Source: an uncultured Clostridium sp. (GTDB lineage Bacteria; Bacillota; Clostridia; TANB77; CAG-508). Taken from it: DNA of 64,000 bases. Numbering within the stretch: the first letter of the stretch is position 1; the number at the start of each line of letters is the position of its first letter. Positions 7,913-55,780 of this stretch are shown one piece after another. The stretch spans positions 460,114 through 524,113 of the forward strand of contig CANSPP010000001.1 in NCBI GenBank assembly GCA_947648905.1. Direction: 5' to 3'. The translations under genes were made by a program, and so were the position numbers. The notes beneath the pieces are model-generated. The model was not told the origin of the DNA. It saw only the letters and a program-made list of their open reading frames with translations, and did no database searches.

Positions 7913-8005
7913 AAAATAGAAACCGCAAAAGCGGTTTTTATTTTTTTGAACCCACGATATTAATACAACAAACAGAAAACGTGAAATAAAATCGTAAAAT
8001 ATCTT

Positions 8006-8048
8006 GACTTAATTCATAACTATTTATAAAATAGTTATGAATTAAGTC
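8006..8048. promoter_or_regulatory. 17 bp perfect inverted repeat (GACTTAATTCATAACTA n9 TAGTTATGAATTAAGTC) overlapping the -35/-10 (TTGACT ... TAAAAT); putative repressor operator
   Basis: Seen in sequence; an imperfect copy lies upstream of the paralogue at 10890-10934. Confidence 0.6.
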
Positions 8049-8218
8049 TATTTTTGTACATAGTAAAATTAAGAACAAAGAATACTATTTGCGAAAGTGG
8101 AAATAATTTAAATAAAGAAAATAATATATTACTTATTTACATAATGTAAAAATATGTAATAAAATAAAAAACAGTAAAGCAAAAGAAAAAGCAAAACAAA
8201 AGAGAGGAGAAATTTTTT

Positions 8219-9391
8219 ATGCAAATAAAAAATAGAAAAACAAATAACAAAGGTATTACATTAATAGCTTTAGTAATTACAATTATAGTATTATTAATCT
8301 TAGCAGGAGTAGCAATAGCGACGTTAACAGGAGATAATGGAGTACTAACAAAAGCAGCAAAAGCGAAACAAGAAACACAAAAAGCGACAGAAGACGAGCT
8401 AAGAAGACTAACAATGTTAAAAGCAATATCAAACATTGAAAATACAACGTATACAGAGACTAATGGAGATAAAGCAACTATTCCAGCTGGATTTGCGGTG
8501 TCACAAGTAGAAGGAGAAAATACAGTACAAAACGGATTAGTTATAATAGATGCTAATGGCAATGAGTTTGTATGGATACCAGTACCAACTGCTATATCAG
8601 ACACAGAAGCAAATGGAACAACAAATAAGGCAATGGCAATAAATTTGGGAACAGAAGAAAATCCACAATATAGAGGATTGTTATATGACTTTACTGATAC
8701 AGACTCAACTGTAAGAAGTGGATGTACAACAACTACAAGTAGTTATAGAGAACCAGCATATTTAACAGATAGCTCAACTGGAGATGTATCTAGTTATAAT
8801 ACAGTAGGAATAACAGAAGCAAGCTTACAAAATGATTACAATGATATGATAAAAAGTGTATATTTAAATAATGGATTTTATGTAGCAAGATATGAGATGA
8901 GTTTAGATGCAAATAAAAATGCACAATCAAAGAAAAATGTAACATCAACAGATGCTTCACAGGCTGATACAAATATGTGGTATGGATTATATAATAAGGC
9001 TAAAAATTATGCATTAAAAACAGATACTACAAAAAATGTAGTAAGTAGTATGATATGGGGAAGCCAATATGATGCAATGATGAATTGGATGCATAAAGAT
9101 AGTAATGTAAATGTTAATTCAAAAACACCTGTAGCAGGGACAAGTAAAAATACAACAAGAATAACAGGTGGACCAAATGAAGGAGAAACTGAAAGTAAAG
9201 ATATATTAAAAAATGTATATGATTTATTAGGTAATAGTAGGGAATGGACATTAGAGGCCTACAATTCCAGCTATCGACTTAGTCGTGGTGGCAGTTACGG
9301 CGACAGCGGTTCCCCAGCTAGTCGCGTCGGCAGCAATCCAGACGACACCAACGACAGCGGTGGTGGCAGGCTCGCACTTTATATAAAGTAG
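8219..9391 (+). CDS. Type-IV-pilin-like N-terminus + FGE-sulfatase/C-type-lectin-fold domain protein; putative DGR target, copy 1
   Basis: N-terminus MQIKNRKTNNKGITLIALVITIIVLLILAGVAIATLTG is a prepilin-like leader and hydrophobic helix. C-terminal domain has GNEFVWIPVP, GFYVARYEMS, MIWGSQYDAMMNWM, NVYDLLGNSREWTLE...RGGSY...R...GGRLALY, i.e. FGE-sulfatase (PF03781-like) motifs. The last ~125 bp (9261-9376) are GC-rich and A-poor. Confidence 0.75.
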   Translation: MQIKNRKTNNKGITLIALVITIIVLLILAGVAIATLTGDNGVLTKAAKAKQETQKATEDELRRLTMLKAISNIENTTYTETNGDKATIPAGFAVSQVEGENTVQNGLVIIDANGNEFVWIPVPTAISDTEANGTTNKAMAINLGTEENPQYRGLLYDFTDTDSTVRSGCTTTTSSYREPAYLTDSSTGDVSSYNTVGITEASLQNDYNDMIKSVYLNNGFYVARYEMSLDANKNAQSKKNVTSTDASQADTNMWYGLYNKAKNYALKTDTTKNVVSSMIWGSQYDAMMNWMHKDSNVNVNSKTPVAGTSKNTTRITGGPNEGETESKDILKNVYDLLGNSREWTLEAYNSSYRLSRGGSYGDSGSPASRVGSNPDDTNDSGGGRLALYIK

Positions 9392-9848
9392 GACTGAATG
9401 CTGTGAAAACTAAAATTAAAACTAATTCGAGAGCAGTTTTAAATAGAGTAATTGAATATAAGAACTCGGCGAATGTAAGTTGAAGCTTCCTTTTGGAAGC
9501 TTTTTTTGTGCGTCTTAGCACAAAAAACTTCTGGAGAAGAATTTAAGCCAATAGGAACAGAAAGCTATCTATAGGCAGAAGTACAAATGGTAAAGACCTT
9601 TAATTGATATTCTATTTTAAATTGGCAATAAAATAGAGAAACTTACATTTTTTATCTGAGTGAATTGCATCAGTAAACAATTTTTTTTGCAAATAACCTC
9701 CCTACCCGCTCCATTTTATATCAACTTACGAACTAATAAGTTTGTAGGTTATTTTTATATATAAATTTTAACATTAAAAACAATAAAGGACTTGACAATG
9801 GAGAACAAATGTTTTAAAATATATAAAGTAAGAAAAGGATGTGAAATC

Positions 9849-10748
9849 ATGGAAGAAAATAAATTACTAATTCAAAATGAATTATCAAATGAAGATATAA
9901 AAAAATTAATATATACAATAAGAGGAAAGCAAGTTATGCTAGATAGTGATGTAGCTATGTTATATCATTATGAAACAAAGAAAATAAATCAGACTGTGAA
10001 AAGAAATATACAAAGATTTCCAGAAAAGTTCTGTTTCAAATTAACAGAAGAAGAATTGGAAACTATGTGGTCACAAATTGTGACCACTTCGAAGTTAGAA
10101 GATAATAAATATAGGAGTAAAAAATATTTACCATATGTATTTACAGAACAAGGAATAGCTATGCTGTCTGGTTTGTTAAAAAATGACATAGCTGTTCAAG
10201 TGAGTATACATATTATGGATGCTTTTGTTGAAATGAGAAAATTTTTAATGTTAAATGGACAAGTATTTGAAAGATTAACAAGTATGGAATATAAATTATT
10301 AGAACATGATAAAAAATTTGATGAAGTTTTTAATCAACTACAATTAAAAGAAAACATTAAACAGAGAGTATTTTTTGATGGTCAAATATATGATGCATAT
10401 AGCATCATTATTGATATTATAAAAAAGGCAAATAGCAAAATTTTAATTATAGACAATTATATTGATGATAGCGTTTTGAAAATGCTAGCTAAAAAGAAAA
10501 ATAATGTAGAAATAGTTATTCTAACATCAGATAAAAGTAATATTGATAATTTAGATATAAAAAAATTCAATAAAGAATATCCTATTCTTAAAGTTTCTAA
10601 AACAAACAAATTCCATGACAGATTTATTGTAATAGACAATAAAGAAATGTATCATTTGGGAGCTTCTATAAAAGACTTGGGTAAAAAATGTTTTGCAATT
10701 AATAGAATTGAAGATACAGAAATAATAGAAAAAATTATAAATTTGTAA
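9849..10748 (+). CDS. ORF6N-domain protein (phage antirepressor-like N-terminus) with a C-terminal HDRF...YHLGASIKDLGKK domain
   Basis: IYTIRGKQVMLDSDVAMLYHYETKKINQTVKRNIQRFPEKFCFKLT...YLPYVFTEQGIAMLSGLL matches the ORF6N domain. The ORF-table start at 9792 is the promoter -35 (TTGACA, 17 bp, TAAAAT); true start is ATG 9849 behind the RBS aaaaggatgtg. Confidence 0.7.
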   Translation: MEENKLLIQNELSNEDIKKLIYTIRGKQVMLDSDVAMLYHYETKKINQTVKRNIQRFPEKFCFKLTEEELETMWSQIVTTSKLEDNKYRSKKYLPYVFTEQGIAMLSGLLKNDIAVQVSIHIMDAFVEMRKFLMLNGQVFERLTSMEYKLLEHDKKFDEVFNQLQLKENIKQRVFFDGQIYDAYSIIIDIIKKANSKILIIDNYIDDSVLKMLAKKKNNVEIVILTSDKSNIDNLDIKKFNKEYPILKVSKTNKFHDRFIVIDNKEMYHLGASIKDLGKKCFAINRIEDTEIIEKIINL

Positions 10749-10889
10749 ATGTTTGAGGTCACAAATTGTGACTTCAAAGGTATTATAAAATATTACATCT
10801 AAATGTAGTGTTACAATAGATGTGAAACAAGAGAAAGAAATCCGTACGACATTAATATAATAAACAGAAATAAAATCGTAAAACATATT

Positions 10890-10934
10890 GACTTAATTCG
10901 TAATTATTTATAAAATATTTATGAATTAAGTCTA
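10890..10934. promoter_or_regulatory. Paralogous promoter/operator palindrome (imperfect copy of 8006-8048)
   Basis: gacttaattcgtaattatttataaaatatttatgaattaagtc. Confidence 0.5.
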
Positions 10935-11097
10935 TTTTTGTACATAGTAAAATAAAGAACAAAGAATACTATTTGCAAAAGTGGAAATAATTTAAATAAA
11001 TAAAATAATATATTACTTATTTACATAAAATAAAAATATGTAATAAAATAAAAAACAGTAAAACAAAAGAAAAAACAAAAGAGAGGAGAAATTTTTT

Positions 11098-12270
11098 ATG
11101 CAAATAAAAAATAGAAAAACAAATAACAAAGGTATTACATTAATAGCTTTAGTAATTACAATTATAGTATTATTAATCTTAGCAGGAGTAGCAATAGCGA
11201 CGTTAACAGGAGATAATGGAGTACTAACAAAAGCAGCAAAAGCGAAACAAGAAACACAAAAAGCGACAGAAGACGAGCTAAGAAGACTAACAATGTTAAA
11301 AGCAATATCAAACATTGAAAATACAACGTATACAGAGACTAATGGAGATAAAGCAACTATTCCAGCTGGATTTGCGGTGTCACAAGTAGAAGGAGAAAAT
11401 ACAGTACAAAACGGATTAGTTATAATAGATGCTAATGGAAATGAGTTTGTATGGATACCGGTTCCAACAGCTATAGCAGAGAGTGAAGAGCAAGGAACAA
11501 TAAATAAGGCAATGGCAGTAAATTTAGGAACAGAAGAAAATCCACAATATAGGGGATTATTATATAATTTTACTGATACAGATTCAACTGTAAAAAGTGG
11601 ATGTACAACAACTACAAGTGAATTTAGAGAACCAGATATAGTAAGCAATTATGATAATGATGAACAAACATATTTAAATGATATAGGATTAACACAATCA
11701 AGTTTTCAAGCAGAGATGCAACAAGCATATAATGATATGATAAAAAGCGTAGATTTAAATCATGGATTTTATGTAGCAAGATATGAGATGAGTTTAGATG
11801 CAAATAAAAATGCACAATCGAAGAAAAATGTAACATCAACAGATGCTGCACAGACTGATACAAATAGGTGGTATGGATTATATGATAAGGCTAAAAATTA
11901 TGGATTAAAAATAGATACTACAAAAAATGTAGTAAGTAGTATGATATGGGGAAGTCAATATGATGCAATGATGAATTGGATGCATAAAGATAGTAATGTA
12001 AATGTTAATTCAACAACTCCAGTAACTGATGCAGTTAGAAATCAAGATACACAAAGAAGAACAGGATTTGTAGAAACGGATAAAATAAAAAATGTATATG
12101 ATTTATTAGGAAATAGTTACGAATGGACATTAGAGGCCTACCATTACAGCTCTCGAGTTTATCGTGGTGGCTATTACGGTAACAGCAGTTCACCAGCTAT
12201 TCGCTACAGCGACTATCCGTACTACACCTACAGCTACAATTCTTCACGTCTCACACTTTATATAAAGTAG
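11098..12270 (+). CDS. Pilin-like N-terminus + FGE-sulfatase/CLec-fold protein; putative DGR target, copy 2 (paralogue of 8219-9391)
   Basis: First ~120 codons identical to copy 1, middle diverged, same FGE motifs. C-terminal 12141-12255 is GC-rich and A-poor and differs from copy 1 mostly at A-containing positions. Confidence 0.75.
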   Translation: MQIKNRKTNNKGITLIALVITIIVLLILAGVAIATLTGDNGVLTKAAKAKQETQKATEDELRRLTMLKAISNIENTTYTETNGDKATIPAGFAVSQVEGENTVQNGLVIIDANGNEFVWIPVPTAIAESEEQGTINKAMAVNLGTEENPQYRGLLYNFTDTDSTVKSGCTTTTSEFREPDIVSNYDNDEQTYLNDIGLTQSSFQAEMQQAYNDMIKSVDLNHGFYVARYEMSLDANKNAQSKKNVTSTDAAQTDTNRWYGLYDKAKNYGLKIDTTKNVVSSMIWGSQYDAMMNWMHKDSNVNVNSTTPVTDAVRNQDTQRRTGFVETDKIKNVYDLLGNSYEWTLEAYHYSSRVYRGGYYGNSSSPAIRYSDYPYYTYSYNSSRLTLYIK

Positions 12271-12652
12271 GACTGAATGCTGTGAAAACTAAAATTAAAA
12301 CTAGTTCAAGAGTAGTTTTAAATAGTAATTGAATATAAGAACTCGGCGAATGTAATATGCCAAAGCACTTCCTGAAGGAAGTGCTTTTTTTGTGCATCTT
12401 AGCGTACAAGAAATCTTCTAAAAATAAAGAAAAAAGATGCAATATTGTTAAAGGGATATGTCCTGTTTCGCATCATTGACACTACAACAAAGATATTGGT
12501 ACTAAATTTTGAAAAATTATTGACAACAATGTAAAAATATGATAAAATTGGTAACTGTAATCCGCTTAGTCAAGGTACAAAAACATTAACAATAGGTTAA
12601 TTACCTTTATTTAAGGATTAGCGAGTATACAAATAAGGGAGGTGCATTTTAA

Positions 12653-13021: not shown

Positions 13022-13085
13022 TTTAAAACATAGATTTTAAAAGAGAAAACATAAATAAAAACGAAACCGAAAGGAGTTGAGAAGC

Positions 13086-13346
13086 ATGGCTCATAAGAAA
13101 GGGCAAGGTAGCAGTCACAACGGTAGAGACAGTGAGTCTAAGAGACTTGGTGTCAAAAGAGCTGATGGTCAATTTGTTTTAGCAGGAAACATCCTAGTAA
13201 GACAAAGAGGAACAAAAGTACATCCAGGAACTAATGTTGGAAAAGGTAGCGATGATACATTATACGCATTAGTAGATGGAACAGTTAAATTTGAAAGAAA
13301 AGGTAGAGACAAAAAACAAGTAAGTGTTTACCCAGTAGCAGAATAA
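13086..13346 (+). CDS. rpmA: 50S ribosomal protein L27 (no N-terminal pro-peptide; no prp gene between rplU and rpmA)
   Basis: [25 protein letters not shown]...; AAGGAG RBS 10 nt upstream of ATG 13086. The ORF-table start 13077 is TTG within the RBS spacing. Confidence 0.9.
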
Positions 13347-42328: not shown

Positions 42329-44026
42329 ATGAAAAAAATATTTTTTAAAAATACAATTCTAACAGCATTAATATCAATAATAATATTTAATCTAACAGTC
42401 TTTTTAATACCAAATAGAGTACAAGCATCAACATATAACCAAATAACAATAAATGCAAATAGCAACAATAATAACGGAATAGATGCATTTCCAGAAAGCT
42501 ATCAAATAATGTTAAAAAAATTGGTAGAAGACACAGGACACTCAAATTGGAAATTTAAACCGTTTTACACAGATATCAGTTGGGATGAACTAACAAGTTC
42601 AGATAATGAAAACAAGTGCCTAAGAAATACAATACACCAAAGTAATGGCTCATGGCTTTGCCCTTGTGGGCAACAAGGGGATAGAGGATATTATTGTGCA
42701 TCAAGAAGAATAGTAAATTACTATTTAGACCCAAGAAACTTTTTAACAGAAACAACAATATTCCAATTTTTAGACTTATCAAATCAAACAGTAATACCAA
42801 TAGAACAAATACAAAAAGCAGTAGAAGGAACATATTTAGCAGGGAGTGTTAATGGAGTATCATATGCACAAATGATATATGATGCAGCACAAGAGTCAGG
42901 AGAAAATGCATTAAGCATAACAGTAAAAATATTTCAAGAATTAGGTAAGGGAAATACCTTGCCAGGAATGATAAATGGAAAAGATGCTACATATCCAAAT
43001 ACATATAACTTCTTCAATTATGGAGCATCAGACGGAGAAGGAAATACACAAAGGGGACTAGCATATGCTTCTAGAGCAGGGTGGAACACACCAAGAACAG
43101 CATTAATAGAAGGAGCAAAATTAATAGCTAATTCATATGTGAAGGTAGGACAAAATACAAAGTATACATTTAAATTTGACATAGTAGCAGACAATTCAAC
43201 AGGGCTATATTGGCATCAATATATGACAAACATACAAGACCCAACAAACCAAGCTAAAATGTTATTTGATGAATACTTAAACAATGGATGGCTAAATAAT
43301 GAATTAACATTTGTAATTCCAGTTTATAAAGATATGCCAGCATATGTAAAATTGCCAAGCAGTTTAACAACAAATGATGGAACATTATATTTTATAAGTT
43401 CTAGATATTCAGATGTGGCAATAAGAACAGGATATAGTTCAGGAGCTACAACTATTGAGTATTTAAAAAGAAATACACCAGTTTTAATGCTAAATTATAA
43501 TGAGAATAATACAGGTTGGTCAAAGGTTAGAGTAAATGGTAGAGAAGGTTATGTTATTAATGATTATTTAACACCTGTTAATACAAAGGTTGATACATAT
43601 AAGGTACCAAATCAACCAGGAGATACACAACTACCTACAGTAATAGGTGGAACAAATTTTGAATTACAAGGCTCATATATTATTGCTGAACCAGGGACTA
43701 AGTTAAGTGATATCAAAGCAAAATATAATGTTATATCAGCTACAAAGGATGGTGTAGCAATATCAGATCAGGAAAGTCTAGCGACAACAGCTTGTATAAA
43801 CATTGATAACACAGTATATGTTGTTGCTAAACTAGGAGATGTTAATGGAGATGGTTATATTACTCCAATAGATTATGTAAAAGTTGTAAATAAAATTATG
43901 GGAGTAACAGTCTTTAATGAAGTAAGTATAAAAGCAGCAGATATAAATAGAAATGGAGAAATTAGTCCAGAAGACTATGTGAAAATTGTAAATCAAATTA
44001 TGGGAAATTCAAAAATAGAACTATAA
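42329..44026 (+). CDS. Secreted GH73-type glucosaminidase + SH3b domain + C-terminal type-I dockerin
   Basis: Signal peptide; dockerin repeats GDVNGDGYITPIDYVKVVNKIMG and AADINRNGEISPEDYVKIVNQIMG. Confidence 0.6.
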   Translation: MKKIFFKNTILTALISIIIFNLTVFLIPNRVQASTYNQITINANSNNNNGIDAFPESYQIMLKKLVEDTGHSNWKFKPFYTDISWDELTSSDNENKCLRNTIHQSNGSWLCPCGQQGDRGYYCASRRIVNYYLDPRNFLTETTIFQFLDLSNQTVIPIEQIQKAVEGTYLAGSVNGVSYAQMIYDAAQESGENALSITVKIFQELGKGNTLPGMINGKDATYPNTYNFFNYGASDGEGNTQRGLAYASRAGWNTPRTALIEGAKLIANSYVKVGQNTKYTFKFDIVADNSTGLYWHQYMTNIQDPTNQAKMLFDEYLNNGWLNNELTFVIPVYKDMPAYVKLPSSLTTNDGTLYFISSRYSDVAIRTGYSSGATTIEYLKRNTPVLMLNYNENNTGWSKVRVNGREGYVINDYLTPVNTKVDTYKVPNQPGDTQLPTVIGGTNFELQGSYIIAEPGTKLSDIKAKYNVISATKDGVAISDQESLATTACINIDNTVYVVAKLGDVNGDGYITPIDYVKVVNKIMGVTVFNEVSIKAADINRNGEISPEDYVKIVNQIMGNSKIEL

Positions 44027-44054
44027 CTATTTATAGATGCTTAGGAGGCAAAAA

Positions 44055-45542
44055 ATGAATAAAAAGGTATTTTATAAAATATTAATAACTATATTAATGG
44101 TAATCGGATTTTTAATAGTAATGCAATTAGAAACAAATGCAGCTAGTTTAAGTATAAGTACTTCAAAATCTAGTGTATCTCCAGGGGAGAAATTTTCTGT
44201 AACTGTTTCAGTAAGTGGAGGAGCAGGATATGTAAATTTAAGTGCAAGTAATGGAACATTAAGTGATACAACTATGGAATTAATGTTAAAGTCATCAGCT
44301 ACTGTAACTTGTACAGCAGGAAGTTCTGGAACAGTATCAATAAGTGCATCAGGAACAATTGCTGATTATACAACTGAGAGAGAAGAAACTAAAAATGCTT
44401 CAGCAAGTGTTTCAATTGCTAGTAGCTCAAGTGGTGGAAGTTCTACATCTGGAGGGAATACTGGAACGTCAACAAGTGGAGGAAATACAAGCAATACAGC
44501 ATCAAACAATGCAAAACTATCAAACTTAGGAATAACACCAAATGATTTCTCTGGATTTAAATCAGGAACAACAACATATAATGCAACAGTACCAAATAAT
44601 GTAACATCAGTACAAGTATATGCAAAAGTACAAGCATCAGGTGCGAAATACTCAGTAAGTGGACCATACAATAACCTACAAGTAGGAACAAACAAAATAA
44701 CAGTAACAGTAACAGCGCCAGATGGGAAAACAACAAATACATATACGATATATGTAGCAAGACAAGCATCTAAAGACGAAGAAGTAACACCAAATGTAAT
44801 AGATGAAAATAACGCAAATACTGATAATAGTGAACAACCAGGAACAGAAGAACCAGAAGAAAATCAAGAGCAAGAAGCACTAGGACTATTATCAATATCA
44901 ATAGACGAAGGGTATGAAATATACTTAGAACCAGAATTTAAAACAGATGTATACGAATACACAATAAACTTAGAAGAAGATTTAAGCGAAATTCCACTTA
45001 CAGCTATTGCAAATAGAGAAAATGCAATCATAGAAATAACAGGAAATGAAGATTTGCAAGATGGCGAAAACATAATTACAATTACAGTAACAGATGAAGA
45101 AACAGGCGAAAAAGTAGAATATAAAATAACTGTAAAAAAAGGAATGGTAGCCCAAGAAGAGACTGAGCAAGAAGGAGATAAAAATCTTGAAGAAAGAAAA
45201 TGGTTAATAATAGCAGTAGCAACAGGAGCAGTCGCAGTAGTAATAATAATTATAGTTTCTTGCGTAATAATAAGAAGAAGAAAAAAATTCGAAAGTGAAT
45301 TTGGCGTAGATTATGACGAGGAAGACTATGATGAAAATTATGAGCAATATTATAATCAAGTAAATGAAAAAGAAAGTACCTACGAAAGCGATTCAATAGA
45401 AGAAAAAGATTTTGATAATAAATATGAAAATCCAGTTGACGAAAAACCAAAATTAGATGACGTATTTGGAAAATCATATGTAGAAGAATATGAAGAAGAA
45501 AAGCCAAAAAACAGAAGACGTGGTAAAGGAAAACATTTTTAA
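44055..45542 (+). CDS. Type-I membrane surface protein with cadherin-like beta-sandwich domains and an acidic cytoplasmic tail
   Basis: Signal peptide; NAKLSNLGITPNDFSGFKSGTTTYNATVPNNVTSVQVYAKV... (cadherin-like, PF12733-type); C-terminal TM WLIIAVATGAVAVVIIIIVSCVII; AGGAGG RBS before ATG 44055. Confidence 0.6.
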   Translation: MNKKVFYKILITILMVIGFLIVMQLETNAASLSISTSKSSVSPGEKFSVTVSVSGGAGYVNLSASNGTLSDTTMELMLKSSATVTCTAGSSGTVSISASGTIADYTTEREETKNASASVSIASSSSGGSSTSGGNTGTSTSGGNTSNTASNNAKLSNLGITPNDFSGFKSGTTTYNATVPNNVTSVQVYAKVQASGAKYSVSGPYNNLQVGTNKITVTVTAPDGKTTNTYTIYVARQASKDEEVTPNVIDENNANTDNSEQPGTEEPEENQEQEALGLLSISIDEGYEIYLEPEFKTDVYEYTINLEEDLSEIPLTAIANRENAIIEITGNEDLQDGENIITITVTDEETGEKVEYKITVKKGMVAQEETEQEGDKNLEERKWLIIAVATGAVAVVIIIIVSCVIIRRRKKFESEFGVDYDEEDYDENYEQYYNQVNEKESTYESDSIEEKDFDNKYENPVDEKPKLDDVFGKSYVEEYEEEKPKNRRRGKGKHF

Positions 45543-54862: not shown

Positions 54863-54988
54863 ATTTACATATCGTAATGTGAAAATTTAATGAATTTATA
54901 AAAAGGTATAGCAAGATTAAAAAAATTATGCTATACTTTTTAACGTATATAGGGGCTAAAATTAAACAAGAAGAAAGGAATGATAGTA

Positions 54989-55780
54989 ATGCCCCGTATG
55001 GCGCGTGAATTAAGTAAAACAAAAGTGTATCACATAATATTTCGTGGAAACGATAAACAGGATATATTCTATGATACACAAGATTACAAAAAATATTTAA
55101 AAGAAATGAAAAACACAAAAGAAAAATATCAATATGAAATATTAGCATATTGTCTGATGTCAAATCATGTACATTTAATAGTTTTTGACAAAAATGATAA
55201 TCTTTCGAAATCGATGCAAAGTTTAGCTATAGCATATTCAAGTTATTTTGCGAAAAAGTATGAAAAAGTGGGACATTTATTTCAAAATCGATTTTTAAGC
55301 AAAAATGTTGAGACACGAGAATATCTATTGCAATTATGTCGATACATTCATCAAAATCCAGTAAAAGCAAAAATTACAAAAGTAAATGAATACAAGTGGA
55401 GTAGTTATAACGAATATGTGAAATTGAATTTGAAAGAAAGAATGATAAATATAAACACAATATTGCCAATGTTTGGAGTTAATAGACAAGAAGCAATAAG
55501 GAATTTCGAAGCGTTCCATAGAAAAGAAGATGAACTTAATGATATAAATAAAGAGATTGAGTTTGAAATAAAAGAACGATTAACAGATGAAGAAGTGAAA
55601 ACGATAATAGAAGATATATTAAAAATAGATAATGTACTTGAAATCAAAAATTATGGTGTACAAAAAAGAAATGAAACAATAAGCAAGTTGGAAAATATTA
55701 AAGGAATAACAAAAGTACAAATAGCAAGGATAACTGGAATAAACAGAAAAATAATACAAAGAGTAATGAATAGTAAATAA
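54989..55780 (+). CDS. REP-associated tyrosine transposase (RAYT; IS200/IS605-like HUH Y1 transposase) with a C-terminal HTH
   Basis: HuH motif CLMSNHVHLIV; ...GHLFQNRFLSK...YLLQLCRYIHQNPVKAKI (catalytic Y region); bracketed by inverted REP units. Confidence 0.75.
   Translation: MPRMARELSKTKVYHIIFRGNDKQDIFYDTQDYKKYLKEMKNTKEKYQYEILAYCLMSNHVHLIVFDKNDNLSKSMQSLAIAYSSYFAKKYEKVGHLFQNRFLSKNVETREYLLQLCRYIHQNPVKAKITKVNEYKWSSYNEYVKLNLKERMININTILPMFGVNRQEAIRNFEAFHRKEDELNDINKEIEFEIKERLTDEEVKTIIEDILKIDNVLEIKNYGVQKRNETISKLENIKGITKVQIARITGINRKIIQRVMNSK

Follow-up and report, generated by a model that had tools for sequence, protein, structure and literature searches.

Two paralogous genes in the 64-kb stretch of DNA analysed here (the window) very probably specify surface proteins that are anchored in the membrane and carry a lectin-like tip rewritten at some time by a diversity-generating retroelement (DGR), and thereby add a new example to a known system. 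Gene 1 (8219..9391, + strand; 100% match to P0001) and gene 2 (11098..12270, + strand; identical to P0002) each encode a variable protein of 390 amino acids. Their C-terminal variable regions, VR1 and VR2, were in all likelihood themselves written by a DGR, which we infer from comparison with related loci; whether diversification still goes on in the source genome appears to be roughly an even chance, or a little less.

The duplication had been proposed in a first-pass annotation and was confirmed by the open reading frames and by pairwise alignment. That annotation had also described an identical leader and identical first ~120 codons, of which only the latter held. The two proteins are identical over about 125 residues, the DNA between 8248 and 8547 is 100% identical in both copies, and the first coding difference, at 8560, is synonymous. 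By contrast, the leaders are ~95% identical, with a single 5-nt indel in the alignment of 8048-8218 with the gene 2 copy. The promoter and leader of gene 1 (8004..8218, + strand), of which the second copy lies at 10888-11097, comprises promoter-like sites and inverted repeats, including a −35/−10-like pair at 8004-8032 that forms a putative promoter and a perfect 20-bp palindrome at 8006-8048. Further downstream, the gene bodies are mosaic, with 49 to 95% identity per 100-nt alignment block. The identity of the 5' 450 nt next to strongly diverged middle segments points to recombination or conversion between the copies, and several family copies are present per genome; one might thus think of cassette-type antigenic variation, in which pilE/pilS-like gene conversion between paralogues makes the variable C-termini. 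We consider this extremely unlikely, as conversion would copy blocks rather than scatter changes over positions 1 and 2 of alternate codons, and in relatives the new sequence comes not from a silent copy of the gene but from a non-coding, Asn-rich repeat next to a reverse transcriptase (RT). The gene bodies may well undergo conversion in addition to the action of the DGR.

VR1 (9255..9381, + strand), which aligns over its full length with the template repeats of relatives, and VR2 (12134..12260, + strand) are each 127 nt long and make up the last ~42 codons of the genes. Their existence had been recognized before, with limits of 9261-9376 and 12141-12255 that are corrected here by homology to the relatives' template repeats; the template-homologous stretch does not include one further variable codon, located upstream at 9239. 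As already noted in the first-pass annotation, both regions are GC-rich and A-poor (VR1, 22% A and 60% G+C; VR2, 25% A and 47% G+C), compared with 45% A and ~30% G+C in the remainder of each gene and 44% A and 29% G+C in the window. The last 55 codons of the two genes differ at 41 nucleotides, distributed over codon positions 1, 2 and 3 as 21, 13 and 7, and the earlier statement that the copies differ mainly where one of them carries an A holds for 29 of these sites. The codons previously listed as unchanged (CGT GGT GGC, CCA GCT, CGC, ACC and CTC) are indeed the same in both copies and belong to the scaffold.

Where VR1 and VR2 differ, they do so preferentially at the template-A positions of eight relatives' templates (Fisher p 1e-3 to 5e-6). 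This agrees with the earlier idea of adenine-specific mutagenesis from an AAC-rich template. Because 11-14 of the 36-37 scored differences fall on non-A positions of the relatives' templates, VR1 and VR2, judged by their sequences, are not simply two products of one template of the kind seen in relatives. When compared with the closest template found, that of L084, 20 of 27 mismatches in VR2 and 26 of 40 in VR1 arise from template A. VR2 agrees with the L084 template throughout its last ~25 nt except for the terminal C/T, while the VR1 tail GGT GGT GGC AGG CTC GCA matches no template seen. Four non-A mismatches to the L084 template are common to both regions, which suggests a cognate template slightly different from that of L084.

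Both genes belong to a family with at least 7,929 homologues or protein clusters in uncultured gut Clostridia. Its members share the C-terminal scaffold EWTLEA..R..RGG.Y...SPA.R....P..T....SRLTLYIK, with hypervariable positions in between. Across homologues, variation is limited to codons templated by Asn (AAC/AAT): in 46 distinct C-terminal tails, positions that are Asn in the template have an amino-acid entropy of 2.97 bits, as compared with 0.79 bits at the others, and the two classes are completely separated (U=437, p=1.8e-8). G, S, Y, N and D abound in the tails, a composition that would also fit a conserved low-complexity G/S/Y-rich tail unchanged in orthologues. Such a tail has next to no probability, given that nearly every homologue differs at defined positions while the scaffold residues are fixed, and that the structural model places the segment, at high confidence, within a lectin fold.

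An FGE-sulfatase-type C-type-lectin domain had been assigned to both proteins in the first reading of the sequence. The profile match does not carry this assignment, as FGE-sulfatase (Pfam PF03781) scores of 13.2 and 13.7 bits stay below the cut-off of 23.3; structural evidence was needed for that reason. The AlphaFold model of the gene 1 protein (pLDDT 89.8) predicts a fold that matches solved DGR variable proteins, with the variable region at the C-terminal end of the predicted C-type-lectin fold, where the model is of high confidence. The domain would occupy approximately 8471..9388 (+ strand; about residues 85-390) of gene 1, and the relationship to FGE-sulfatase is supported at the level of the predicted fold only.

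The retroelement itself is found in relatives. A DGR-type RT (GNYTSQ...Y.RY[LM]DD) lies 0.7-4 kb downstream of the homologous gene in nine of 80 genome loci. In these cassettes the family gene is directly upstream of a MutS-like gene, followed by bAvd, the RT and, just 3' of the RT, an Asn-codon-rich template repeat of 125-130 nt. Pfam recognizes MutS_I (27.1 bits), bAvd (PF22296; 75.8 bits) and RVT_1 in the cassette proteins. Among PDB sequences, the RT is matched best, and over its full length, by the 328-aa chain of 8ub7 (E 1e-38), listed there as 'Reverse transcriptase', which we take to be the Bordetella bRT complex. Templates differ from their adjacent variable regions by 17-25 mismatches, all but 1-3 of which stem from template A, the recurring exception being a terminal C>T. 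Two strains of a close relative (L087 and L091) differ at 14 positions in 11,640 nt, all of them template adenines of the variable region; mismatches to the template come to 24 A>N in one and 20 A>N in the other, with one C>T in each. Similarly, the pair P0017/P0018 shows one difference in the body and 17 in the variable region, and P0088/P0092 six and 13.

These data bear on ordinary paralogue divergence, that is, diversifying selection on a surface loop combined with unusual codon usage and no retroelement. The mosaic, diverged gene bodies and those VR1/VR2 differences that fall on third codon positions or non-A template sites would suit such a model. It leaves unexplained, however, why the A-depleted, GC-rich composition is confined to 127 nt, why entropy separates completely by template-Asn codon, why members of this gene family have Asn-rich templates beside DGR RTs, and why all differences between two strains over 11.6 kb are at template-A sites, 14 in number. 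We regard divergence of this kind as very unlikely and as largely refuted already.

As stated in the first-pass annotation, no RT, Avd or template repeat is present in the 64 kb: scanning for a YxDD RT ORF, tblastn with the relatives' RTs (nine), Avd and MutS-like proteins, and blastn for a template repeat or a third copy of the variable stretch were all negative in the window. None of the best 120 RT clusters was found on a contig of 533,841 bp, the longest one recorded with the window's proteins. Because RT, Avd, MSL (the MutS-like gene) and template are absent from the window, genes 1 and 2 are either non-adjacent (trans) targets or orphans. The same alternative of remote targets or remnants had been raised before, and it draws its support mainly from the relatives. 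Where 5 kb or more of sequence is available downstream, as is the case for 60 loci, 51 (about 85%) have no RT nearby, and up to six targets occur per MAG. Moreover, 14 of the 18 mismatches between the remote variable region in L077 and the template in L071, both from the same MAG, come from A, a pair that is indicative of trans targeting in a relative.

Alternatively, VR1 and VR2 may be relics of past diversification, after which loss or inactivation of the cassette would have left the genes to evolve in the ordinary way; we rate this at slightly under an even chance. Apart from the lack of machinery in the window, VR2 is unchanged in a second assembly whose protein carries one substitution elsewhere (R6G), and there is no template seen to which the two variable regions do not show several non-A mismatches. 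In the closest relative, L003, the RT is internally deleted and the variable region has drifted from its own template. Damage affects many cassettes of relatives, elsewhere in the form of a 2-nt insertion in YLDD (L087), of recombinase genes that split the RT (L067) or of a truncated RT (L019). At one chromosomal site the cassette is absent in L090 and present in L087 and L091, and 16 family pairs have identical variable regions in diverged gene bodies, a 'static' signature. Against decay, however, both reading frames are open, the 3' ends of the variable regions and the ~95-nt flank behind them are intact and the same as at cassette-linked targets, and the A-poor composition is fully kept in a genome with 44% A. 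In addition, the constancy of VR2 rests on two assemblies, and the view is one of 64 kb, with ~470 kb of the contig and any other contigs outside it.

At the 3' boundary, VR1 ends in the IMH-like CTCGCACTTTA and VR2 in CTCACACTTTA; the shared form ...CTC(G/A)CACTTTA equals the variable-region ends of cassette-linked relatives, whereas the templates end in ...CACTCTA. This single C/T difference recurs in all of a set of seven template/variable-region pairs and in the L091 pair. The CACT[T/C]TA end, in which template and target differ by this discriminating base, is therefore predicted to be the IMH that marks the 3' boundary. Behind VR1 follows a conserved flank (TATAAAGTAGGACTGAATGCTGTGAAAACTAAAATT...GGCGAATG; 9382..9478, + strand) that also follows the family members in L003, L084, L087, L090, L009 and L083, with 89-95% identity, and whose first ~30 nt are kept family-wide. 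The flank behind VR2 (12261..12355, + strand) is 94% identical to it; the conserved flank noted previously, given there as ~65 bp and identical, is real and measures ~95 nt. The ~95-nt flank showed no covariation and no supported secondary structure; it may be part of a target-recognition element. The GC-rich hairpins further downstream (9482..9503 behind gene 1 and 12362..12387 behind gene 2, both + strand) had been interpreted as the hairpin of an IMH-plus-hairpin arrangement. They are followed by T-runs, were scored as intrinsic terminator-like in a terminator scan and vary in sequence between the copies and among relatives, and we regard them as ordinary terminators.

Taking these data together, we propose that a conserved hydrophobic N-terminal anchor is followed in each protein by a helical stalk and the FGE-sulfatase-type C-type-lectin domain, and that this domain is rewritten in four steps. 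A chromosomal cassette, seen in relatives and presumed here, would comprise MSL, bAvd, a DGR-clade RT and then an AAC/AAT-rich template. The template RNA would be reverse-transcribed with misincorporation opposite adenines, and the cDNA would replace the variable region, directed by the identical 3' end ...CACT[T/C]TA and probably also by the conserved flank just past the stop codon. As a result, the ligand-binding face would be randomized at about 19 residues that Asn codons of the template specify, while the scaffold residues R..RGG.Y...SPA.R....P..T....SRLTLYIK would be left as they are. Genes 1 and 2 would be served in trans by a cassette elsewhere, or would have been orphaned by its loss or decay.

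The nature of the N-terminus is of interest with respect to anchoring. In gene 1, the KG/ITLIALVITIIVLLILAGVAIATL segment (8249..8326, + strand; gene 2, 11128-11205 by motif position) is nearly invariant family-wide, and the 120 listed homologues have the same or a closely similar motif. NNKG/ITLIALVITIIVLLILAG has the shape of a class III signal peptide, with a basic leader, Gly-1 and a hydrophobic stretch, and the segment could serve as a class III signal peptide of the prepilin-like kind or, alternatively, as a signal anchor. The type-IV-pilin-like N-terminus assigned earlier thus holds in shape and is suggestive only. Pfam N_methyl reaches 17.5 bits and stays below its cut-off of 21.2, NCBIfam gave no match below E 0.01, and the family profile matched pilin N-termini in the PDB weakly (E 0.04-0.24); one homologue is named 'pseudopilin PulG' by its JGI source. 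Residue +5 (A17) is Ala rather than Glu and nearly invariant in a 40-sequence alignment. Some tip or minor pilins also lack Glu5. No pilus machinery is encoded by the ORFs checked between 42 and 56 kb of the window, which represent housekeeping or surface-protein genes, and neither a GPTGSGK(S/T)T ATPase nor a Glu5 pilin was found in 1.4 Mb comprising the window and the relatives' loci. A 715-aa ORF of L066 contains one relaxed-motif match, GSTGSGKST.

Several known systems share features with the one described here. Like the Treponema denticola DGR with TvpA (PDB 2y3c) and seven further remote targets, it involves several paralogous targets. The Treponema cassette has HRDC (architecture C), as opposed to MSL plus Avd in the relatives' cassettes, and TvpA is ~16% identical to the window proteins. 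TvpA is a lipoprotein, whereas the window proteins have a prepilin-like hydrophobic N-terminus. The T. denticola element is a cellular, non-phage DGR; its paralogous targets are scattered around the genome and served in trans in the account of Wu et al. (2018; PMC5758913). Thermus aquaticus TaqVP (PDB 5vf4) is 15% identical and differs in host phylum and N-terminal region.

As regards cassette architecture, the relatives resemble MSL-containing DGRs in pairing a small MutS-domain-I-like gene with avd and RT. The MSL genes described by Wu et al. (2018; PMC5758913) are 112-283 aa in size and always accompanied by avd (architecture D, which includes the Legionella pneumophila DGR). In the relatives the target comes first, MSL, avd and RT follow in this order, and the template lies 3' of the RT. 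L039 and L091, two of these relatives, carry an MSL-RT fusion without avd, which does not agree with that description, and their variable regions still show A-to-N changes. Adenine-specific mutagenic retrohoming and a bAvd family accessory protein, both as seen in the relatives, are shared with Bordetella phage BPP-1 (Mtd, bAvd, bRT). Unlike the window genes, however, the BPP-1 system is phage-borne with a single adjacent target, and it has a GC-rich IMH with a GC hairpin behind it, whereas here the homology ends in an AT-rich ...CACTTTA and the only GC hairpins are terminators ~100 nt downstream.

In concept, a pilin-type N-terminus carrying a ligand-binding module is reminiscent of PilB and PilC of Streptococcus sanguinis, in which, as outlined in PMC8179133 and PMC9934059, such a module, a lectin in PilC, is grafted onto a pilin N-terminus; modular pilins are described there as widespread in monoderm bacteria. 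The S. sanguinis proteins have the IPR012902 motif and no DGR, in contrast to the Ala at +5, the below-threshold motif and the lack of nearby filament machinery seen here. Finally, DGRs of Bacteroides gut commensals are described as diversifying type V pilus tip adhesins (bioRxiv 10.1101/2024.11.15.621889). Whereas phylum, pilus type (type V) and cassette differ, these elements have in common with those considered here that a cellular DGR of a gut commensal acts on adhesive surface proteins.

Gene 1 (8219-9391) and gene 2 (11098-12270), the two paralogous surface-protein genes on the + strand, are ORFs of 390 amino acids each. Pairwise DNA alignment revealed about 95% identity over the upstream 170 nt, not a single difference over the 340 nt from the coding start, a mosaic body in which identity per 100-nt alignment block ranges from 49 to 95%, and 94% identity over the ~95 nt past the variable stretch. 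The last 55 codons differ at 41 positions, distributed 21/13/7 over codon positions 1/2/3, and an A is present in one copy at 29 of them. The variable stretch is compositionally foreign, with 22-25% A and 47-60% G+C compared with 45% A and ~30% G+C in the remainder of the genes and the window. The first-pass annotation had described the duplicated genes correctly with regard to their identical starts and GC-rich, A-poor tails; the scaffold codons that it listed are the same in both copies, and the pattern is far from chance.

The window represents ordinary chromosome, encoding GroEL, ribosomal proteins L21/L27, Obg, a class I W/Y-type tRNA synthetase, MreB and DisA. As had been stated from the sequence, reverse transcriptase (RT), Avd and template are absent from these 64 kb: no ORF of the window contains the YxDD motif of RTs, the relatives' RT, Avd and MutS-like proteins had no tblastn match there, and the variable stretch has no third copy within the window. 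Downstream of gene 2 lies a long cell-wall glycopolymer cluster (13481-41581; Wzt-type ABC transporter, GT2, PMT_2, YfhO, GH25 muramidase), followed by dockerin/SH3 and cadherin-like surface proteins (42329-45542) and an IS200-type Y1 transposase (54980-55780). GT2 and PMT_2 genes adjoin a family gene in the relatives' loci L090 and L091, too. Between genes 1 and 2, an ORF6N-domain protein (9792-10748; PF10543, 114.8 bits), whose C-terminal part bears a weak resemblance to the VPA1262 N-terminal domain (46 bits, under the cut-off of 80), looks like a mobile-element regulator at the duplication junction. A 20-bp perfect palindrome, GACTTAATTCATAACTATTT/AAATAGTTATGAATTAAGTC, is located ~170 nt upstream of gene 1 (8006-8048) and overlaps a -35-like TTGACT; its counterpart upstream of gene 2 (10887-10935) is 87% complementary, with changes that are not compensatory. 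The palindrome might serve as an operator or as a terminator in both directions.

The machinery of a diversity-generating retroelement (DGR) is found in relatives. A degenerate scan of species-representative genomes yielded 80 loci of the family, nearly all from metagenome-assembled genomes (MAGs) of uncultured gut Clostridia (human, mouse, rabbit, ruminant) or from Clostridium sp. CAG:440, with up to six copies per MAG. At nine of the 80 the family gene is followed, after 0.7-4 kb, by an RT gene. The DGR signature GNYTSQ...Y.RY(L/M)DD is present in eight of these RTs, the RT gene of L003 being devoid of that part, and the relatives' RT matches PDB 8ub7 over the full length (E 1e-38). Directly 3' of the RT gene, a template repeat of 125-127 nt copies the C-terminal coding stretch of the target, with AAC or AAT at the variable codons. 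Template and adjacent gene differ by 17-25 mismatches, all but one to three of which are an A in the repeat and any base in the gene; one recurrent exception, near the 3' end, is C in the repeat versus T in the gene (CACTCTA versus CACTTTA). Two small genes between target and RT encode a MutS domain I protein (MutS-domain-I-like, MSL; 27.1 bits) and bAvd (75.8 bits).

Searches for RT homologues returned 2,123 matches in total. The RT also matches RTs in 140 phage records, at under 40% identity; crAss-like, Faecalibacterium and Bordetella phages are among them, and several of these phages are known to carry DGRs. The target protein had no match in phage records (tblastn), and scanning viral contigs for the conserved template borders likewise gave none; hence, there is no sign of a phage-borne family. 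Among the 120 best clusters (P0121-P0240) the RTs of the cassette are 79-98% identical, while the targets (P0001-P0120) share 40-77%, and the contigs with the RT are mostly very short (2-6 kb). This suggests either that the cassette moves horizontally or that assemblies break at the repeats.

The variable regions of gene 1 (VR1, 9255-9381) and gene 2 (VR2, 12134-12260), 127 nt each, need no gaps when aligned to the 127-nt templates of several relatives, L003 and L084 among them. When compared with the L039 template, 26 of 37 differences between VR1 and VR2 fall on A sites (p=5.5e-6), and enrichment at template adenines was obtained with all eight templates (p <= 1.2e-3), which substantiates the adenine bias proposed earlier. 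The closest template found is that of L084/L085, whose RT shares 95% identity with the RT of the nearest MAG. It differs from VR2 by 27 mismatches (20 from A) and from VR1 by 40 (26 from A). VR1 and VR2 have four non-A mismatches in common, which suggests that their cognate template is slightly different. In the species-representative genomes, a set that excludes the window's own variable regions, no match was obtained to a degenerate DNA pattern modelled on the template and variable regions to be expected. Templates L093 and L094, retrieved from a metagenome scan with the window's non-A signature, were rejected as cognate on account of many non-A mismatches, and the template adjoining the P0011 gene in L087 is of a second type that matches another target subfamily.

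The proteins of genes 1 and 2 (P0001 and P0002) are unannotated members of a large, little-described family of at least 7,929 clusters. Almost invariant in all members listed is the N-terminus (K/N)G-ITLIALVITIIVLLILAGV..TLTGDNG, and the C-terminal scaffold EWTLEA..R..RGG.Y...SPA.R....P..T....SRLTLYIK is shared by all of them except a few with frameshifted or truncated ends. Residues between the scaffold positions are different in nearly every listed member; a tail unchanged in orthologues, which would have spoken against a DGR, was thus not found. In 46 distinct family tails with the spacing of the window genes, entropy amounted to 2.97 bits at the 19 Asn-templated positions versus 0.79 at the 23 others (p=1.8e-8), each of the latter lying below the Asn-templated positions. 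C-termini frameshifted or truncated inside the variable region occur in P0029, P0030, P0055, P0071, P0087 and P0089 (for example ...RVRRRWRFRRQ); these members may be pseudogenes or reflect assembly collapse of heterogeneous variable-region reads. Many clusters among P0068-P0117 (465-635 aa, bodies 2-12% apart) have the identical variable region EAISTAYRISRGGYYSGSYAPSSRTDNYPASTFSSYGSRLTLYIK and are a case of a static variable region carried by bodies that diverge or are modular. A second template/variable-region type, ...C.GRGG.Y..SN.YT..R......T....FRP.LYL, was detected in L087 (13503-13640), L083 (12909-13046 and 8790-8924) and L006 (10636-13298), where one type-1 and two type-2 genes are arranged in tandem. 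Type-2 targets have the same pilin-like N-terminus as type 1. The cassette of L087 appears to have been swapped because its type-2 template adjoins a type-1 target.

The FGE-sulfatase/C-type-lectin domain assigned to both genes in the first-pass annotation scored below threshold in sequence-profile searches; its fold was recovered from a predicted structure. An AlphaFold model from 40 family sequences is confident (pLDDT 89.8, pTM 0.86), and its six best structural matches are TaqVP (5vf4, score 15.5), PvdO (5hha, 12.4), pFGE (1y4j, 12.3), TvpA (2y3c, 12.2), CarF (5aoh, 12.2) and Mtd (1yu0, 12.1), half of which (TaqVP, TvpA and Mtd) are DGR variable proteins. Foldseek was in agreement.

The ~95 nt that follow the variable region (9382-9478 and 12261-12355 in the window) are 89-95% identical in L003, L084, L087, L090, L009 and L083, the second target subtype included, and the first ~30 nt are conserved family-wide. 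The 3' flank noted previously is thus conserved, and the hairpins behind it have to be reinterpreted. Instead of belonging to an IMH-plus-hairpin arrangement, the GC-rich hairpins at 9482-9503 and 12362-12387 score as intrinsic terminators, each with a T-run behind it, and lack sequence conservation. The idea that a structured hairpin accounts for flank conservation was rejected, since the flank had no significant fold as DNA (z = -1.2) and RNAalifold detected no covariation in 10 flanks. We infer that the flank is a candidate recognition element.

DGR activity in a close relative is proven by the loci L087 and L091. They encode the 460-aa family members P0011 and P0242, whose first 46 residues are as in the window proteins and which differ from each other solely in the C-terminal stretch. 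The loci are colinear over 11,640 nt with exactly 14 differences, all at 11289-11352, and the L091 template (13043-13172) differs from the two variable regions by 24 and 20 A-to-N changes plus one C/T each. The pairs P0017/P0018 and P0088/P0092 show the same signature; conversely, 16 family pairs combine identical variable regions with diverged bodies. From these three changed and 16 unchanged pairs it follows that some lineages are active and some static. In MAG CALXHF, the family gene of L077 resides on a separate contig from the cassette of L071, and 14 of its 18 mismatches to the L071 template are from A; non-adjacent and remote DGR targets have been documented (Wu et al. 2018, PMC5758913). 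Of the 60 loci in which the downstream sequence extends for at least 5 kb, only nine have an RT in their flank, and the stand-alone arrangement in the window is thus the family norm.

Whether genes 1 and 2 are still being diversified or VR1 and VR2 are relics is a question on which we see roughly even odds. VR2 is the same in a second assembly in which residue 6 differs, 11-14 of the VR1/VR2 differences fall on sites that are not A in the relatives' templates, and the VR1 tail fits none of the templates found, all of which speak against current activity. By contrast, both reading frames, both 3' ends of the variable regions and both flanks are intact, which speaks for their competence as targets. 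The relatives speak for the relic reading insofar as their cassettes are often damaged or swapped, and one chromosomal site has the cassette in some genomes and is without it in another. That site lies between the target gene and GT2/PMT_2/RimP/NusA genes; it is occupied by MSL, Avd, RT, template and an SSB-like gene in L087 and L091, and the cassette is wholly absent in L090. Damage takes several forms: a 202-aa RT without catalytic core in L003 (11361-11969), a 2-nt insertion within the YLDD motif in L087 (13110-13140), an RT truncated at its C-terminus, and no template detected, in L019 (11251-12120), and a shortened DGR RT directly followed by a group II intron RT/maturase in L083 (11217-12461). 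In L067 (9327-13802) the RT gene is split by a ~3.4-kb insertion with three consecutive tyrosine-recombinase genes, which resembles a 'recombinase in trio' element.

The type IV pilin-like N-terminus ascribed to both proteins is suggestive in shape only. Residue +5 is Ala rather than Glu, the N_methyl score (17.5) is below the cut-off (21.2), NCBIfam gave no match, and the family profile matched PDB pilin N-termini only at E 0.04-0.24. Pilus machinery or further, canonical pilin genes were found neither in the window nor in the relatives' flanks (1.4 Mb). A simple signal anchor at the N-terminus would agree with what Roux et al. 2021 (PMC8144416) report for most cellular DGR targets. In the literature searched, DGR targets with an N-terminus of the pilin type receive only a passing mention ('GspG-type pilin' among rare domains bearing variable regions), and nothing specific was found on DGRs combined with pseudopilins or prepilins. 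In our judgement it is rather improbable that the family comprises true modular type IV filament subunits whose nearly invariant prepilin-like N-terminus dispenses with Glu5, as in a tip subunit. A pilus or pseudopilus of uncultured AT-rich gut Clostridia would then bear a repertoire of lectin heads randomised by a DGR. A single small cassette of the MSL type, far better conserved than its targets (RTs 80-96% identical, targets 40-70%) and gained, exchanged and lost again and again, would act in trans to rewrite up to six or more paralogues, whose variable regions belong to two types or more, and the ~95-nt post-stop flank would act as a portable 'address label' making any paralogue targetable.

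Being very large, multi-copy and surface-exposed, the family is a plausible adhesin or receptor repertoire of uncultured small-genome gut Clostridia. Metagenome surveys that require a variable region beside the RT miss non-adjacent targets, as is explicit in Roux et al. 2021 (PMC8144416); with ~85% of family members standing alone, the reach of DGRs in gut Firmicutes is thus probably underestimated. When AT-rich genomes are annotated, a C-terminal tail that is GC-rich and A-poor, on a gene for a lectin fold, is by itself a usable signature of a DGR target.

There is nothing new in the mechanism as such: DGRs, variable proteins of the lectin fold, accessory MSL genes and remote targets have all been described already. 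In two unrelated genomes MutS domain I is fused to the RT and an avd gene is lacking (L039, 967-2181; L091, 11631-13016, the latter belonging to the strain pair that differs in the variable region alone), and the variable regions beside these fusions still show 22-24 A-to-N changes. They differ in this respect from the MSL-containing DGRs of Wu et al. 2018 (PMC5758913), which also contain avd. The unfused cassette of the relatives, consisting of MutS domain I, bAvd and RT genes, corresponds to architecture D, the one with MSL, in the scheme of Wu et al. 2018.
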